From a virus (lineage: Duplodnaviria > Heunggongvirae > Uroviricota > Caudoviricetes): DNA of 33,277 bases. The translations under genes were made by a program, and so were the position numbers. The stretch is from IMG/VR virus record IMGVR_UViG_2778261295_000004, one strand, 5' to 3'. The notes beneath the pieces were generated by a model. It was given only the letters and a program-made list of their open reading frames with translations. It ran no database searches and was not told the origin of the DNA. Of this stretch, positions 4,266 through 33,277 are shown one piece after another (positions within the stretch are counted from its first letter, which is position 1; each line of letters starts with the position of its first letter).

Positions 4266-4747
4266 GACAGAAGCCCTCCCACCGTTTTACTGATATCGCT
4301 TAAGGCAGATGTTGCCGTTCCCTGCAGATTACTCAGCTGCGCACTGAGATCACCGAACATATCGGACAGGGACTCATCCACCCGTTTGAGCGACAGGGTG
4401 AACTCAATCCGGCGCGGCATACCGTCGCGGAAAAACTCCGTTTTAGTCTGATTCAGTCCCTCAATCACATACATGCCGTAAATCGTGCCGCTGCCTTCAA
4501 TCAGAGGCCATGCTTTCCCCTGTTCTGCCATCTGCTCAAGTGCCAGCAACGACAGCCTGCCGCCTGTTATCTCCGGCATAAGAACACCGGAAAGCGTCAG
4601 CATGTCGTTGTCCGGTCCCAGAAACTGCGTGGACGGACGACGATTTACCCGGCTGTTAGCCGCATGTCGCCAGCTGCGCTGATACTGCAGTTCCTGATAC
4701 GGCACGGTGCGCAGCATAAACACGTACAATCCCAGCACCATCATCAT
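4262..4747 (-). CDS. U: Tail protein U
   Basis: 161-aa ORF; ATGA start/stop overlap with T; position between T and D. Confidence 0.9.
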   Translation of the reverse strand: MMMVLGLYVFMLRTVPYQELQYQRSWRHAANSRVNRRPSTQFLGPDNDMLTLSGVLMPEITGGRLSLLALEQMAEQGKAWPLIEGSGTIYGMYVIEGLNQTKTEFFRDGMPRRIEFTLSLKRVDESLSDMFGDLSAQLSNLQGTATSALSDISKTVGGLLS

Positions 4748-7700
4748 GCGTCGTATCCCCCCTGATCGCTGTAGTTACTCCTGGCTTTTGCCTTCAGCCT
4801 GCGTTCACGTTCATCAAGCTGGCGGGCCACCTCCCGCGCAATATCCTGCGCACTTTGTCCTGGCTGTGTCTGGATGATGATCTGCGTCGGTGCCTCAATC
4901 CTGTAAACGGGCGGCACAGTGGCTGCACGACTCACAATTGCTTCTCCACCTTTCGCGGGAAGTGCCAAAGGGTGCAACGGTGGAAGCTCTGCTGGCGCGG
5001 CAGCAACGCCCATCATTCCGGCAACAACGGCAGCCAGTGCAGCTGTATTTCTCCGGCTGATCACATTTGCCGGGCCGTTAACAATTTCCGGCCCGTTTTC
5101 ACCGACGATGCCAAACTGCCCGCGCGGGATATACCCGCCGCTGTCATACATCCCCGCAAAGCCATATCCCCATGACGGGAAACCACCCGATGGCATCATC
5201 ACTTTACCGTCTGCATTCACCGTCGCAGGTTGCTGACGCGTCACGCTTTCCGGCAGTTTTGCCTTTGCGGCCTCTTTACTGACAATGCCGAGCTTCTCCA
5301 GCAACCAAGAAACGCCGGATTTCAGGGAGTCCAGCGGATGCATGACCATATTCAGCCCTTCCGCCAGTGCCTCTCCGAATCGCCGCCCCATTGCCGCTGC
5401 ACTCTGCAGTTCGGCAGAGGTCGACTTAACGGGCGTCAGCAGATCAGTAAACCAGCCCCACAGCGCCTGTACTTTGTCGCCAATCCACTGGAACACGGGC
5501 TTAAGCGGTTTGAATGCTGCACTGACGGGACCTGCCGCCGCTTTGAATCCTTCCACCACGCCACCAAGAAATGCGGTGATGGGTTGCCAGTATTTCCAGA
5601 CAACCAGCGCCAAGCCCGCCAGTGCAGTAACCACAAGACCTATCGGACTGAGCAGAGCACCTAACAGACCAGATATGGCATACAGGGCAACGCGCAGCAT
5701 CGCCAGTGGACCAGATGCCAGTACTCGCAGCACCGTGCCTGCGGCGGCCAGTCCACCGCGCAGTACCGCCAGAGGATTCATAAACATCACAGCAACAGCA
5801 CGTAAACCGGATAATCCAGACCGCAAAAGTGCAACCGGCGCACCTGCTACAGTTTTCAGGACATTTCCCGTCAGTGATGCCGTGCGGCGCAAAGACGACA
5901 ACGGCGCAGTAAGTAAACCTGCGGCGTTGCCCGATGAAGCAAGCCCGCGTCGCAGCAGTGCCAGTGGTGCGCCAGCCAGCCAGGACAACGCGCTGCTGGT
6001 TCGAGTTACTGCTGCCGTAACGGAAGGTAACGTTTTGATACCCAGCACAGATAATCCCAGACGGATCACTGCCAGCAGCCCCAGCACTGCAGCCAGCGCC
6101 ACCGCTAAGGTGCCGAGGCCTACGGTAACCGCAGCCACCACAGCGGCTACTTTCATCAGTGTGCCTGTCAGTTCCGGGTTAGCTTCCACCCAGCGGCGCA
6201 ACGCCCCCGTGATGCTTTTCACCGTGTACAGAATATCCATCAGCGGCTGGCGCAGCGTTTCGCCCAGGCTGCTGAAGGTGTTCTGCGCTCCGGTTTTGAC
6301 CAGCAACCACTGAGCAGAAAGTGAGTCTTTGTTGATGTCGGATTCTTTCTGCATGGAACCGAGCGCATCATTGCCCGCAGTCAGTTTTAGCTGGCGCTGC
6401 AGTTCCGGCAGGTTGTTTGCCAGTTTCGCCGCGTCATCGCCAAACTCTTTACCAAACAACATGGTCATGGCAGACAGGCGCTTATCCTGCGGCAGTGCGT
6501 TCACCTTCTCCAGCACACGCTGGATAGTTCCCATCGCATCCTTCGTCATCTGCTTTTCAATCACTTCAGGATTGAGCTTCAGCAGATTCATTCCTTCAAA
6601 GAAACTCTTGCTTTGCATGGTGGCAATGGACAATTCACGCACCATCGCGTTTGCTGCACTGGCTGCAACCTCTGGCGCAGCACCCAGTGTCAGGAAGGTG
6701 GAACCCAGCGCCGCCGCTTTACGATAATCCAGACGGTCAGCCACACCGCCCAGGCGTTGCATGACATCAATGATGTCCGCCCCTTTCGACATGGCGTTAT
6801 CATCCAGATAGTTCAGCGCATCACCGAGCTGTTCAATATTGCGGGTAGGTATTTTGTAGAGCTGGGCGATTTTCCCCAGACTTTCTGACAGTTCATCCGC
6901 TGGCAGCTCAAAGGCTGTTGCCGCCTTTGCCGCCGTGCTGGCGAAGGCCAGCAGGTCACGTTTCTGGTCTTCCCAGCTGTCGTCAGGGTTTGCGACGTTC
7001 ATGCGCGCCCCACCTTCAACCAGTGCGGCGAAGTCCACAGCACCGTTTTCCATCGGCAACTGTTCGCTGGCAGCCTTGATGGCATCCTGCATTTCATAAA
7101 AACGCGCAGTGCGATTGCCATTATCGCCACGCAGACCATTGACCTGCTTTGCCACACCTTTCATGGCATCTTCCATGCTGGTATAGCTTTTTACTGCCGC
7201 CATCACTGGTGCGCCCATTGCCAGCCCTGCAGCCGTGGTGGTGGCTCCGGCACCTGCAATCCGATCCCTTACTTCAAGACGCCTGGCGTAAGCCCCCCGG
7301 GCGGCGTGCATTTTTCGCTGTTGCTCCCCGACACGTCGTAACCTCGCTTCCTGCTCAGAAAGCTGCCTGTTATAACGCATCGTTTCACGGGTAATGCGGG
7401 CCGTCGCACTGGCGCCATCATTAGCTGAAATACCAGCACGATAAAGTTCTGCACGCACAAGCGCCGTCTGCTGCTGCAGCTTTTTCTGGCGTTCTTCCAG
7501 GCGCTGAACAGCCAGCCGTTGACGGCCCAGAGCAACAACCTGACGTTGCGAAGGCGGCCCCATCGCTCCCAGTTCCTGACTGAGCAAATTTGCACGCTGG
7601 CGGGCATAGTTCAGCCTGTCGCCTAATTTCTGATTTTCTGCCTGCAGCTTTCGGAAGCTGTCCAGACTGCTCCCGGCCTGATCAAGCTGCTTTATTGCAT

Positions 7701-29102: not shown

Positions 29103-29932
29103 TACGCAATCTCCAGTTCGAGCTGTGAAGGCTGCAAACCATTCGACAGCCAATCAGAAACTGAAGGTGGGCGAACAGCTTCAATTGCACCTTTTAAAAT
29201 TGCGCAACGGTTTTTCAGAATGACAGCTTTCAGCTCCTTTTCCGTCAGATTGCGCGAATACTCAGCCTCCTGAATAGCCCGCGTCAGCTCAGGATATTTG
29301 CTATTAAATTTGGGGACATTGCAGGCAAGATTTGTACTGTCGGCAGTCGCCAGTGGGTAATTTCCCAACACACGACCGTCAAGCATGCGCAAACCATGAA
29401 CAGCTGTTTTGAAATTGTGTCGGCAATAAATTGCTTCAAAAGCGTCCTGCATACGACGATGCCAGTGCGCAGTTCTGATAGCCGCATATTCACCAGACGA
29501 TCCAAAGCAGACACGAGGCCATTCACGACATAGCTCGATAAGCCGATCGATTGACTCGTGCAGATGCCAGACGGGAGTTGCCTTCCCGTAGAACATTTTC
29601 GGAACTTCGTTTATCAGGGCATCATTGTCACGTTCACCTCCGTCCACAACATCAGGAATGACAAAAAAAGCGACCTTAGGATGGTGGTAATAGTTCAGGA
29701 GCCATTTATAAAAATCACTCCAGTTAATTTTTAGCCCACGCACCCATGCAGAAAATGCGCCGTTATCAATGCCGACGACCTGAGCGTGCTGAATGGACGC
29801 CGCAATCTGATCTGGTCGTACATAGGAGACGAAAGCGCCAGCTCCGCTCACCGCAATACGATGAACGTCGCCAGCACTTCCCCAGACAGGCGTCCCATGG
29901 AAATGATGAATTCCGTGGTGCATTTCTTTCAC
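29102..29932 (-). CDS. Hypothetical protein between dam and A
   Basis: 276-aa ORF, GTG start overlapping the dam stop (alternative ATG at 29923); translationally coupled on both sides. Confidence 0.5.
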
Positions 29933-30783
29933 ACTTGCACCCCGAAAATAACAGTAGAGTCACGTCCCCTACTAAAATCGGCACTAAACCAATTAGCAGA
30001 TTTAGTGGCAATCATCTCTGTTGCAAATTTTCCCTCCCCCGCTGCAACGCCGATGCTGCGTTTCGCCCTGATGTAGTGGTGAGTGAAATTACGATAAAGG
30101 GACCGGGTCAAAGACGTGTTACTGTTAGAAACAATGACCGGATGTCCTTCTGATGACCGATGTTCAAGAATGGATGCCAGGTGATACTGATCATCTTCAG
30201 TGAAACCATCAGTGTGATAGCCGGAAAACGTACCGTCATAAGGCGGATCGCAATACACCACATCCCCCACCTTCAACATCGCCAGCGTTTCATCAAAGCT
30301 GGCGCAGATAAACGTTGCCCGCTGGGCTTTCTCTGCAAATGCGCGAATTTCTTTTTCAGGGAAATACGGATTTTTATAATTACCGTAGGGAATGTTGAAA
30401 TGCCCGCTCTTGTTATAGCGACATAAACCACGGTAACCGTGACGATTGAGATACAGGAAATATACCGCTTTCATGAAATCAGTAATTTCAGTGGAGTAAT
30501 TAAACTCCTGCCTTATGTTGTAATAAGCCACCTCCCTGTTTGCTTCCTCAAATAAAGCTCTGGCACGAGATATAAACGCCTCACAATCAGCAGCAACCTT
30601 TTTATAGAGGTTGATTAAATCAGGATTAATATCCGCAACAAGATAGCTGGGGTAATCCGTCTCCATCATCACTGCACAGGAACCCGCGAAAGGTTCAACC
30701 AGTCGCGGGCCAGCAGGAAGATGCTTTTTCAGTTCGGACATTATGGCGGTTTTATTTCCTGCCCATTTCAGGATGGTGCTCAT
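29929..30783 (-). CDS. dam: DNA adenine methyltransferase (Dam family)
   Basis: Start refined to ATG ([11 protein letters not shown]...) with GGAGGTG upstream; contains the ILKWAGNK and DPPY motifs of Dam-type N6-adenine methyltransferases. Confidence 0.85.
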
Positions 30784-31007
30784 ACAGCACCTCCGTTGTA
30801 ATGTTTGCCTTTCAGCTCTGCGATTTCCTGACAGGTAATGCAAAGCTGCACACCCGGAATGGCACGGCGGCGTGCTGGCGGAATTGGCGCTTCACACTCA
30901 ACGCAAAGCACGCGGGACACGCCCGGCGTTTTGGCACGGGCAGCACGGATATGGCGTTGGCGTTCTTCTTCAACGCGCTGCTGTACGAGATCCATTGCAT
31001 CAGCCAT
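30780..31007 (-). CDS. TraR/DksA-family C4 zinc-finger protein
   Basis: 75-aa ORF with CVEC ... CITC spacing; ATGA overlap with dam. Confidence 0.75.
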   Translation of the reverse strand: MADAMDLVQQRVEEERQRHIRAARAKTPGVSRVLCVECEAPIPPARRRAIPGVQLCITCQEIAELKGKHYNGGAV

Positions 31008-31307: not shown

Positions 31308-31649
31308 TTAATTCGGCATGGTTAGCCGTCTGGGAAATAAGCTCACCACTGCACGAAAATGATTCATTGCTTTAATCAACTCCCGCTTTTCGTCAGTGGT
31401 CAGCTCATTAATGCTGATGCTATGACGTTCAGCTGGAATTTTTGCCATAAAGAATATGGCAGCCAGTGCCCGTTTATTTTGTTCATTATTGATATCCCGA
31501 GGATCACGCATATCTTTAATAAACCGCTCAAGCTCTGACTCAATATTCAAACCAAAAACTTTCGCCCTTAACTCCGCAATATGATTAAGTCCATTCAGGC
31601 GTTCACCGGGTCTTAATGGAACAGTCGCCGCAGCGCCTTCAATAGCCAT
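31308..31649 (-). CDS. Hypothetical early-operon protein
   Basis: 113-aa ORF, ATG start, same strand and operon as cII and A. Confidence 0.5.
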   Translation of the reverse strand: MAIEGAAATVPLRPGERLNGLNHIAELRAKVFGLNIESELERFIKDMRDPRDINNEQNKRALAAIFFMAKIPAERHSISINELTTDEKRELIKAMNHFRAVVSLFPRRLTMPN

Positions 31650-31813
31650 TTGTTCCCCCGTTTTTTCGTAGATAGTTCTGCCAGCAATTCATCTTGTGAA
31701 CGGCACGGATGCCAGCGTTTACCATCCTCACCCATGATCCAGCCGTGACCGTAGTGCATTGCCGGACTTTGTTTTACCAGCAGCGATGCAAATGATGGTT
31801 CTTTCGTCAGCAT
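31613..31813 (-). CDS. Hypothetical small protein
   Basis: Start refined to ATG (MLTKEP...) with GAGGTG upstream; contains HPC/WH residues. Confidence 0.4.
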   Translation of the reverse strand: MLTKEPSFASLLVKQSPAMHYGHGWIMGEDGKRWHPCRSQDELLAELSTKKRGNKWLLKALRRLFH

Positions 31814-31820
31814 AAGCACC

Positions 31821-32330
31821 TCACAGCAAACCGAATGAAGCACCGAGGCCAGTCACGGTATCAACTGCACTCGCCATCGCAGGATTAGCCTGTAAACGGG
31901 CCTGCAATGAAACAGCGGCCAGCGCCATCAGTCGTGTTACAGAGTTAATGCTGCTGATAGCATCACGACGACCTGCACTGGTTTTTACATCGCCAGATAC
32001 CGCACCTGCAGCAACACGCCCGATCTCTGCGGTTGCACTCATGACATAATGCGGCAGTTTCTCTTTTGCCACCTCATTAATCGGTACACATGGCAGGCAG
32101 TGAATCTGTGCCAGAAAGCCATCTACCAGCGTTGAATCTTCAGTCAGATCGGTAAGCAACCAGATTTCTGGTGCGGTTAATAAATGAGGTTGAGCTGGGT
32201 TCAGCTTGTTCCGCAGAATCTGTACATTCATGCCTGCACGTTCTGCCAGTCGCACCAGGTTGTGGCGCAGTGCGAATGCACGACAGGCTTCGTCAAAATG
32301 TGGATGTTTGGAAACTTGATAATCAAACAT
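31821..32330 (-). CDS. cII: CII-like lysogeny establishment regulator (186 CII-type)
   Basis: 169-aa ORF directly downstream of apl/cox on the lytic strand; the length equals what I recall for 186 CII; call is by position and size, not by a verified alignment. Confidence 0.55.
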
Positions 32331-32362
32331 AGTCAGCCCCTTCCCTTTATTTCAAAATCGAA

Positions 32363-32584
32363 TCAATTGATTACGACATTGGAATCGGCAAGCGCATCCA
32401 CTGTCATGGCTGCAATGTTGATCATTACCTTTTCACGTTTTTTATCCTTGCGAAGACGATGCCGCTTAAGGCGTCCATCTGCGAGCATACTGTTGATAGT
32501 GTCTACAGATAACCCTGTGAGTTCACTGTACTTTTCAACCGAAATGGATGGGACAGCTAATGTGATTGAAATGTGCTGAGTCAT
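32363..32584 (-). CDS. Excisionase / lytic-switch repressor (Apl/Cox-like)
   Basis: 73-aa basic protein with helix-turn-helix-like segment (SVEKYSELTGLSVDTINSMLADGRL), first gene of the operon divergent from cI; AGGAGA Shine-Dalgarno. Confidence 0.65.
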   Translation of the reverse strand: MTQHISITLAVPSISVEKYSELTGLSVDTINSMLADGRLKRHRLRKDKKREKVMINIAAMTVDALADSNVVIN

Positions 32585-32635
32585 AAGGCAACATCTCCTG
32601 TTTAAGTGTGTTTAACATTGACGAGTAGTTGTAAG

Positions 32636-32709
32636 TCACATTTTGAAATCAATGCGACTATAAGATCACAAATTGAAATCGTCAACCATAAAGTTCACAA
32701 GGTGAAATC
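32636..32709. promoter_or_regulatory. Three direct repeats TCACA-N3-TGAAATC in the cI / apl switch region (candidate operator sites)
   Basis: Copies at 32636-32650, 32666-32680 and 32695-32709, spaced 30 and 29 bp; the third overlaps the cI ribosome-binding site. Confidence 0.5.
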
Positions 32710-32710
32710 G

Positions 32711-33277
32711 ATGGATTTTAGTCAAGGTGGAAAGAAAGCTATCGAAAGGATGGTTGAAGCCTATGGGTTCACTACAAGACAGGCGTTATGTGAACAACTA
32801 GGCATATCAAAAAGCAGTCTTGCTACACGCTACATGAGAGATTCATTCCCTTCTGATTGGGTTATTCAGTGCGCGCTCGAAACAGGAGTAAACATAAAGT
32901 GGCTGGTAACAGGCTTACCTCCTAAACATGAATATTTAACGTCTGACATCATCAATATTCAAAAAATAAAATTGATTGATGGAGTGCTATTGGATGCAGG
33001 AACACTAATGTTTGACAAAGTGTTCATTCCTGATGGTTTATCATCACCATCTGTGATATCAAACGGGAATAACTCTTATTTTATTGAGAGGGATTTCACA
33101 GATGTAGTTGATGGTGATTGGTTAATCTCCATTGATGGAAAGCATTCTATAAAACAAGTTATTAGAATTCCTGATAATAAAGTTAAGATTAACTATGGGA
33201 ATATCATTGTTGATATGAACATTAATGACCTTGTATTCATCGGCAAAGTTATAGCAGAATTCAAGATAAGAGGCTAA
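32711..33277 (+). CDS. cI: Immunity repressor CI (186-type)
   Basis: Start placed at ATG with AAGGTG upstream (table ORF starts at GTG 32606); N-terminal HTH-like segment (TTRQALCEQLGISKSSLATRYMRD), divergent from apl/cox; stop codon is the last three bases of the window. Confidence 0.7.
   Translation: MDFSQGGKKAIERMVEAYGFTTRQALCEQLGISKSSLATRYMRDSFPSDWVIQCALETGVNIKWLVTGLPPKHEYLTSDIINIQKIKLIDGVLLDAGTLMFDKVFIPDGLSSPSVISNGNNSYFIERDFTDVVDGDWLISIDGKHSIKQVIRIPDNKVKINYGNIIVDMNINDLVFIGKVIAEFKIRG

Follow-up and report, generated by a model that had tools for sequence, protein, structure and literature searches.

Three copies of the sequence TCACA-N3-TGAAATC lie at intervals of about 30 bp between two divergent genes at one end of a phage sequence, and the question that this locus raises is which regulator recognises them. 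The original prediction assigned them to the switch region of a cI gene and an apl/cox gene and proposed, from their arrangement, either binding of an Apl/Cox-type protein or a non-classical CI operator. The gene context that it assumed is borne out. The last 1.5 kb of the window (the whole stretch of DNA that was analysed, 33,277 bp) contain fil, cII and a 73-aa gene on the minus strand and a 188-aa gene on the plus strand that continues to the window end:

31613-31843, minus strand: fil, of the same family as in phage 186.
31821-32330, minus strand: cII, 169 aa, likewise of the family found in 186 (PF06892, 8.7e-42; PF10893, 2.5e-24).
32363-32584, minus strand: cox/apl-like gene, 73 aa, which opens the early lytic operon.
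32711-33277, plus strand: cI, 188 aa, an immunity repressor of the 186/HP1 type.

The CI protein comprises an N-terminal HTH domain and a C-terminal domain (Pfam PF07022, 1e-28, and PF16452, 1.7e-26, respectively), is homologous to the 2FKD and 2FJR chains of 186 CI, aligns over its full length with the 186 CI structure 2FJR (E=4e-24) and is 30% identical to 186 CI and also 30% identical to HP1 CI; its HTH covers approximately residues 22-45 (TTRQALCEQLGISKSSLATRYMRD). The 73-aa protein matches PHROG 575 (E=3.6e-26), a family described as "Cox-like excisionase and repressor"; it has no Pfam match and shows no similarity to 186 Apl by BLASTP. ORF prediction and the Pfam and PHROG assignments place cI divergent from an operon of cox/apl, then cII and fil; the prophage is of the 186/HP1 type (Peduoviridae), and this is its immunity switch.

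Of 5,426 complete E. coli genomes, 17 carry an identical switch; in E. coli RM10466, which carries an identical prophage, the annotated order is cI, AAA ATPase, DUF4276 and integrase. The genes of the AAA-family ATPase and the DUF4276 protein lie just past the window end (4280-6013 of locus L032), between cI and int in the lysogenic operon, and look like a defence-type moron; after int (7170-7562 of L032), an ORF encodes approximately eleven tandem (Y/H)TGPGGG(L/M/A) repeats and then a short unique tail. DNA similarity to Klebsiella and Salmonella phages spans cII together with the 3' part of the cox/apl-like gene, ending near 32530, so that the immunity module is distinct from that of any deposited phage. 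With the Klebsiella phages (4LV2017 and others), this similarity is about 90% over cII and the 3' three-quarters of cox/apl and stops near codon 18, which indicates a mosaic junction inside the cox/apl-like gene (about 32530); of its product, only the N-terminal 18 residues appear to travel with the immunity module.

The pattern TCACANNNTGAAATC (TCACA-N3-TGAAATC) has three exact matches when both strands of the 33,277-bp window are searched, all of them on the plus strand (32636-32650, 32666-32680 and 32695-32709), as against a mean of 0.01 in shuffled sequence, where no shuffle reaches three. A repeat search extends the unit to approximately 20 nt and gives start-to-start spacings of 30 and 29 bp, and TRF called no tandem repeat in the region, hence the DNA between the units is not itself repeated. 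All three copies fall, as had been claimed, within the 126-bp spacer between the start of the cox/apl-like gene (32584, minus strand) and the cI ATG (32711). The helical phasing ascribed to them holds only roughly, since 30 and 29 bp correspond to 2.8-2.9 turns at 10.5 bp per turn and are 1.5-2.5 bp below three turns of relaxed B-DNA. The three units, here named O1 to O3, and the two proposed promoters of the switch are the following:

32566-32594, plus strand: inferred lysogenic promoter pL, -35 TTGAAA (32566-71), 17-nt spacer, -10 CAACAT (32589-94).
32634-32650 (exact core 32636-32650), plus strand: O1, AGTCACATTTTGAAATC, at about +1 to +15 of predicted pR.
32657-32685, minus strand: predicted lytic promoter pR, -35 TTGACG (32685-32680), 17-nt spacer, -10 TATAGT (32662-32657).
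32664-32680, plus strand: O2, GATCACAAATTGAAATC, which fills the spacer between the pR -10 and -35.
32693-32709, plus strand: O3, GTTCACAAGGTGAAATC, upstream of the pR -35 and ending 1 nt short of the cI ATG.

The predicted pR, found by a promoter scan, matches the sigma-70 consensus at 10 of 12 positions and is directed at cox/apl-cII-fil, and its hexamers are invariant or nearly so in nine related switch regions (identity 0.96-1.00). The -10 of pL is too weak for a consensus scan; this promoter is placed by its offset from the apl start codon, which is the same as that of the annotated 186 pL, and both of its blocks are invariant in relatives. It would face pR, with the two starts approximately 50 bp apart. 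O1 overlaps neither a promoter hexamer nor a ribosome-binding site, and O2 and O3 share bases with other signals that constrain the sequence, namely the -35 hexamer, a GATC and the cI Shine-Dalgarno. The last of these, AGGTG, stands 5 nt ahead of the ATG and inside copy 3 (AAGGTGAAATCGATG), an overlap that the original prediction had described correctly.

The units can be summarised as a 17-mer, G-W-T-C-A-C-A-N3-T-G-A-A-A-T-C, with the partial dyad symmetry G.T..CA...TG..A.C. Complementary pairs number three of eight in O1, six of eight in O2 (GATCACAA-A-TTGAAATC) and four of eight in O3, within which TTCAC-AAG-GTGAA forms a short perfect palindrome; for TGAAATC, the arm conserved best, the unit offers no good counterpart across the dyad. 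The GATC is at the left edge of O2 (32664-32667), just upstream of the pR -10, and most related switch regions retain it (45 of 67 distinct regions by a strict test, which missed several more), even those in which the first half of O1 and O3 differs. The prophage has a DNA adenine methylase (Dam-like gene, 29929-30843, minus strand), and Dam methylation may affect pR, or the binding of CI to O2.

The repeats are conserved in related prophages. Relatives were retrieved by CI-based searches via conserved N-terminal motifs of CI, with 80 of at least 588 IMG/VR CI loci compared, and include Rahnella, Yersinia ruckeri, Kluyvera, Brenneria, Hafnia and many IMG/VR contigs, whose CI proteins are 45-63% identical. 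All of these loci, with at least 12 distinct switch regions among them, retain three sites whose distances from the cI ATG are unchanged and whose spacings are 30 and 28-30 bp. Among the nine loci with the TGAAATC-type motif, which share ancestry and for which the statistics ignore kinship, mean pairwise identity is 0.90 for O1, 0.77 for O2 and 0.86 for O3, versus 0.44-0.68 for the unassigned spacer, and O1 is the most conserved non-coding block among relatives, with values of 0.44-0.58 in the unassigned DNA next to it. Across 19 sites, nine positions (T3, C6 and T11-C17) are invariant or vary at a single site, and N3 varies. Moreover, a scan of 2.9 million IMG/VR contigs shows the motif pair in 13, of which 12 carry it directly upstream of a CI homologue. 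The feature is real and functionally constrained.

Other lineages carry other sequences in the same places. Brenneria has GTTTGCTTTTGGAATC three times, the right arms of L028 and L031 read TGTAGAC, TGTTATC or TGTGATC, and Hafnia and the L067 class have GTTCAC-N5-GTGAC palindromes at the homologous positions. Clear palindromes are also found in 813R9 (GTACCCAATTGGGTAC, spacing 30 and 29 bp) and in RE2010 (ATCTTGATTCAAGAT, spacing 30 bp). The search for direct triplets misses lineages with dissimilar palindromic sites, which were read by eye. Judged from these sequences, a layout of three sites at about 30 bp is the usual one in the 186/HP1 CI family, and the two-turn spacing of 186 is the exception in the sample.

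The sites change together with CI. In L012 and L021 as compared with L031, residues 1-50 of the Cox/Apl protein are 100% identical, yet the site sequences differ, and so do the CI recognition helices (SKSTLATRY vs SKGTLANRY). Conversely, L005 and L053 share the same GGAATC-type sites with CI N-terminal domains that are 81% identical and Cox/Apl proteins that are 34% identical. Among relatives, in a comparison uncorrected for shared ancestry, site sequence therefore seems to follow the CI HTH rather than the Cox/Apl protein. A simple residue-to-base code from CI helix to operator was tried and failed: the helix SKSTLATRY pairs with three site types, and several lineages share it but differ in site sequence.

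The CI proteins of these relatives also show a contrast between their domains. N-terminal domains are 71-89% identical and C-terminal domains 31-50%, even with a shared operator motif; between the window and L004, the values are 83% and 31%, a gap due in part to retrieval by N-terminal motifs. This suggests shuffling or fast divergence of the oligomerisation domain. In L035 (323-1264) and L036, the Klebsiella phages 4LV2017 and ST11-OXA245phi3.1, and also in L079, L109 and L110, two CI N-terminal-domain-like modules stand in tandem, beginning in L035 near 380 and near 701 and annotated as a single 313-aa CI; upstream of them, these phages have TCACA-type repeats at spacings of 20 and 29 bp.

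On this evidence, the three repeats are very probably the primary operators O1-O3 of the prophage's own 186/HP1-type CI over pR. In our reading, the units are pseudo-palindromic, with unequal halves set in one polarity, and each unit of approximately 17 bp would be the site of one CI dimer. This reading follows from the homologous sites in HP1, 813R9, RE2010 and Hafnia, which are plain palindromes, and since the units share one polarity, they are seen as direct repeats. The description "direct rather than inverted" is accordingly right as to polarity and incomplete as to the partial internal dyad and the palindromes at the homologous positions of relatives. Similarly, of the proposed non-classical CI operators, the CI operators stand and "non-classical" does not, the spacing of about 30 bp being a common family layout.

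A switch of this form could work as follows. With site centres approximately three turns apart, neighbouring dimers within a CI oligomer could bind with cooperativity and on approximately one face of the DNA. Occupation of O2 and O1 by CI would block RNA polymerase at pR and so keep cox/apl-cII-fil and the lytic cascade off. Since pR and the putative pL would face each other, repression of pR should ease interference on pL, whose transcript would cross the operators and enter cI. When CI is abundant, the occupied operators could impede pL, a putative negative autoregulation, and Cox/Apl, as the product of pR, would bind a 10-bp-phased array of its own and repress pL.

Phage 186 offers a close parallel, with a homologous two-domain CI, cI divergent from apl-cII-fil and pR and pL face to face, as is predicted for the window, and its annotated "3 binding sites for CI" begin at the cI start codon, cross the pR -35 and -10 and end just past +1. 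The C-terminal domains of 186 CI form a 14-mer wheel that wraps DNA. This CI binds the three pR operators cooperatively (PMC3675496). Unlike the sites in the window, spaced by 30 and 29 bp, the operators at the 186 pR are two helical turns apart, whereas the operator pair at pB is 32 bp apart (PMC3675496). Moreover, the central 186 operator is a near-perfect palindrome (ATCTCCCAATTGAGAGAT), whereas the window sites are strongly asymmetric; the window CI is only 30% identical, its Cox/Apl-like partner is unrelated in sequence to 186 Apl, and counterparts of the FL and FR sites (about 300 bp either side in 186) and of the site at pB, the late-activator promoter, were not found at a significant score in the window scan.

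HP1, with a CI of the same family, has three sites at 28 and 31 bp, the three-turn layout of the window, one in the annotated PR2 spacer, one at the PR2 start region and one beside the cI start. They differ from the window sites in being clear 14-bp palindromes (GGGTCAATTGACCC) and in accompanying two annotated tandem lytic promoters, PR1 and PR2. Esposito, Wilson and Scocca reportedly showed in 1997 that HP1 CI footprints these sites. The C operators of P2 and WPhi, which are non-palindromic, resemble those of the window as direct repeats of one polarity over an early promoter, two to three turns apart (PMC2995052). However, the P2/WPhi repressor belongs to an unrelated family (approximately 99 aa, without the CI domains), and there are two 8-bp repeats, in P2 flanking the -10 or -35 of Pe (PMC2995052), instead of three of 15-17 bp.

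Distal CI operators were sought as well. In the window, the best additional PWM match for FL/FR/pB-like operators, at 31685, scores 15.0 and is within the range of shuffles (maximum 16.3); PWM scans over +/-1.6 kb of nine related loci gave weak matches only, at no conserved position; the DNA past the cI stop, scanned in L032, gave weak distal candidates that are likewise positionally unconserved; and the palindromes TTCAC-N5-GTGAA and GATTTCA-N3-TGAAATC occur at chance level. Three such operator-like sequences, all at chance level and at unconserved positions, are GTTCACAAGATGAATTG inside fil (31685-31701, minus strand; it agrees with O3 at 14 of 17 positions), ATCAC-CATCT-GTGAT inside cI, a short perfect palindrome (33043-33057, plus strand, at +333), and the weak GATTCGATTTTGAAATA in the apl-cII spacer (32348-32364). 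The conserved TTCGATWTTGMRATA of the same spacer was considered as a distal operator and rejected, as it is present whatever the operator type and more likely belongs to a pE region.

A variant of the CI reading takes the asymmetry of the units at face value. In this lineage, a CI of the 186 type would then read intrinsically asymmetric operators, with an invariant TGAAATC arm opposed to a TCAC(A) arm, in one polarity and three turns apart, either as a symmetric dimer with two binding modes or through one monomer of the dimer, and the spacing of about 30 bp across the family would make three turns the preferred register of the wheel, with the two-turn pR of 186 as the exception. For the 186 HTH, two distinct recognition sequences have been reported, and for P2 C, it has been proposed that one monomer per dimer reads the sequence. 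We consider this variant rather unlikely.

That the three repeats are instead sites for a Cox/Apl-type excisionase-repressor encoded by the first lytic gene is highly improbable. As direct repeats they do share one orientation, the switch region is of the kind in which these proteins act, and the Cox/Apl-like gene adjoins them. Apl/Cox operators, however, consist of direct repeats of approximately 6 bp, 10-11 bp apart, with at least three adjacent (PMC7498355), as against units of 15-17 bp at 29-30 bp, and in P2-related phages they are found between the starts of pR and pL or over pL, with the operators of the immunity repressor over the lytic promoter (PMC7498355). The three repeats lie over pR, from +15 to beyond the -35. 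Co-variation also speaks against Cox/Apl, since identical Cox/Apl N-termini occur with different repeats and unrelated Cox/Apl proteins with shared ones. Thus, in unit length, spacing, position over pR and co-variation with the CI HTH, the repeats depart from the Apl/Cox binding first proposed for them and from the arrays of 186 Apl and P2 Cox. A separate array fits the Apl/Cox pattern better:

32599-32636, plus strand: candidate 10-bp-phased array TGTTTAAG / TGTTTAAC / TTGACGAG / TTGTAAGT, between the pL -10 and O1.

This array, whose position matches that of published Apl/Cox operators, is, on weak statistical support, a likely candidate for the binding array of Cox/Apl, and its short direct repeats, which follow one another at one helical turn in the interval from pL to pR, resemble those of 186 Apl and P2 Cox. 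It includes the GTTTAA pair already noted in the original prediction, which is present but 1 bp away from where it had been placed (32600-32605 and 32610-32615, 10 bp apart). The 6-mer pair at 10-bp spacing is not significant alone; relatives keep a partly conserved periodic pattern, TTwAG..GTG.TTA. Apl spreads from its own sites into flanking DNA (PMC7498355) and may in this way reach O1.

Near int and att, TCACA-N3-TGAAATC has no copy in L032 or in L039 (E. coli RM10466, 934300-936300). Downstream of int in L039 (reverse strand, approximately 1257-1173), there are two repeats that resemble 186-type Int arm sites, AGTGGCGACA and AATGGCGGCA, and beside them TAAC recurs every 19 bp (TATAAC, TTTAAC, TGTAAC), with weaker TAC/TAA in between; the same stretch holds the repeat CCATTCCCTA twice, 21 bp apart. 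The TAAC series is possibly an att-side Cox/Apl array that resembles the one in the switch.

There is an equally small chance that the repeats are the relic of a tandem duplication of a promoter module of about 30 bp, or sites for host factors, with no specific role in CI binding. Similarity does run slightly past the motif: TGTAAG, TATAAG or ATAAAG precedes each unit (32630-32710), and GACTATAAG after O1 is similar to AACCATAAAG after O2 and yields a weak second -10-like TATGGT. This likeness of the flanks hints at an old duplication of an operator-plus-promoter module of about 30 bp, comparable with the annotated tandem promoters PR1 and PR2 of HP1, which have such a spacing. Nevertheless, TRF reports no tandem repeat, relatives do not conserve the putative second promoter, and a neutral relic would neither retain nine invariant motif positions over 19 sites in different genera, amid drift of N3 and the flanks, nor change in step with the CI HTH. 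An action of the repeats as RNA in the pL leader, where they might control cI translation by folding or by binding a protein or an antisense partner, has a negligible probability, for although all three copies are inside the predicted leader and copy 3 covers the cI Shine-Dalgarno, the fold of the 125-nt leader is no better than that of shuffled sequence (z = -0.62), an Rfam search gave no match and the motif keeps a constant position with respect to the pR hexamers of the opposite strand.

The locus, with its probable CI operators, is best explained as a new immunity type inside the known 186/HP1 switch family, in which such operators are an expected part of the switch. Likely operators, promoters and a Cox/Apl array are now defined for an uncharacterised immunity class of the 186/HP1 type. 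To our knowledge, the immunity type of this prophage has been studied by nobody, and we know of no deeply studied member of the repressor family other than 186. Whether the CI wheel might contact DNA every three turns is a question that single-molecule work on 186 did not settle (PMC3675496), and an operator set with natural three-turn spacing and a homologous CI is therefore a convenient system in which to address it. The switch family also lends itself to the study of how operator specificity changes under a near-constant recognition helix.
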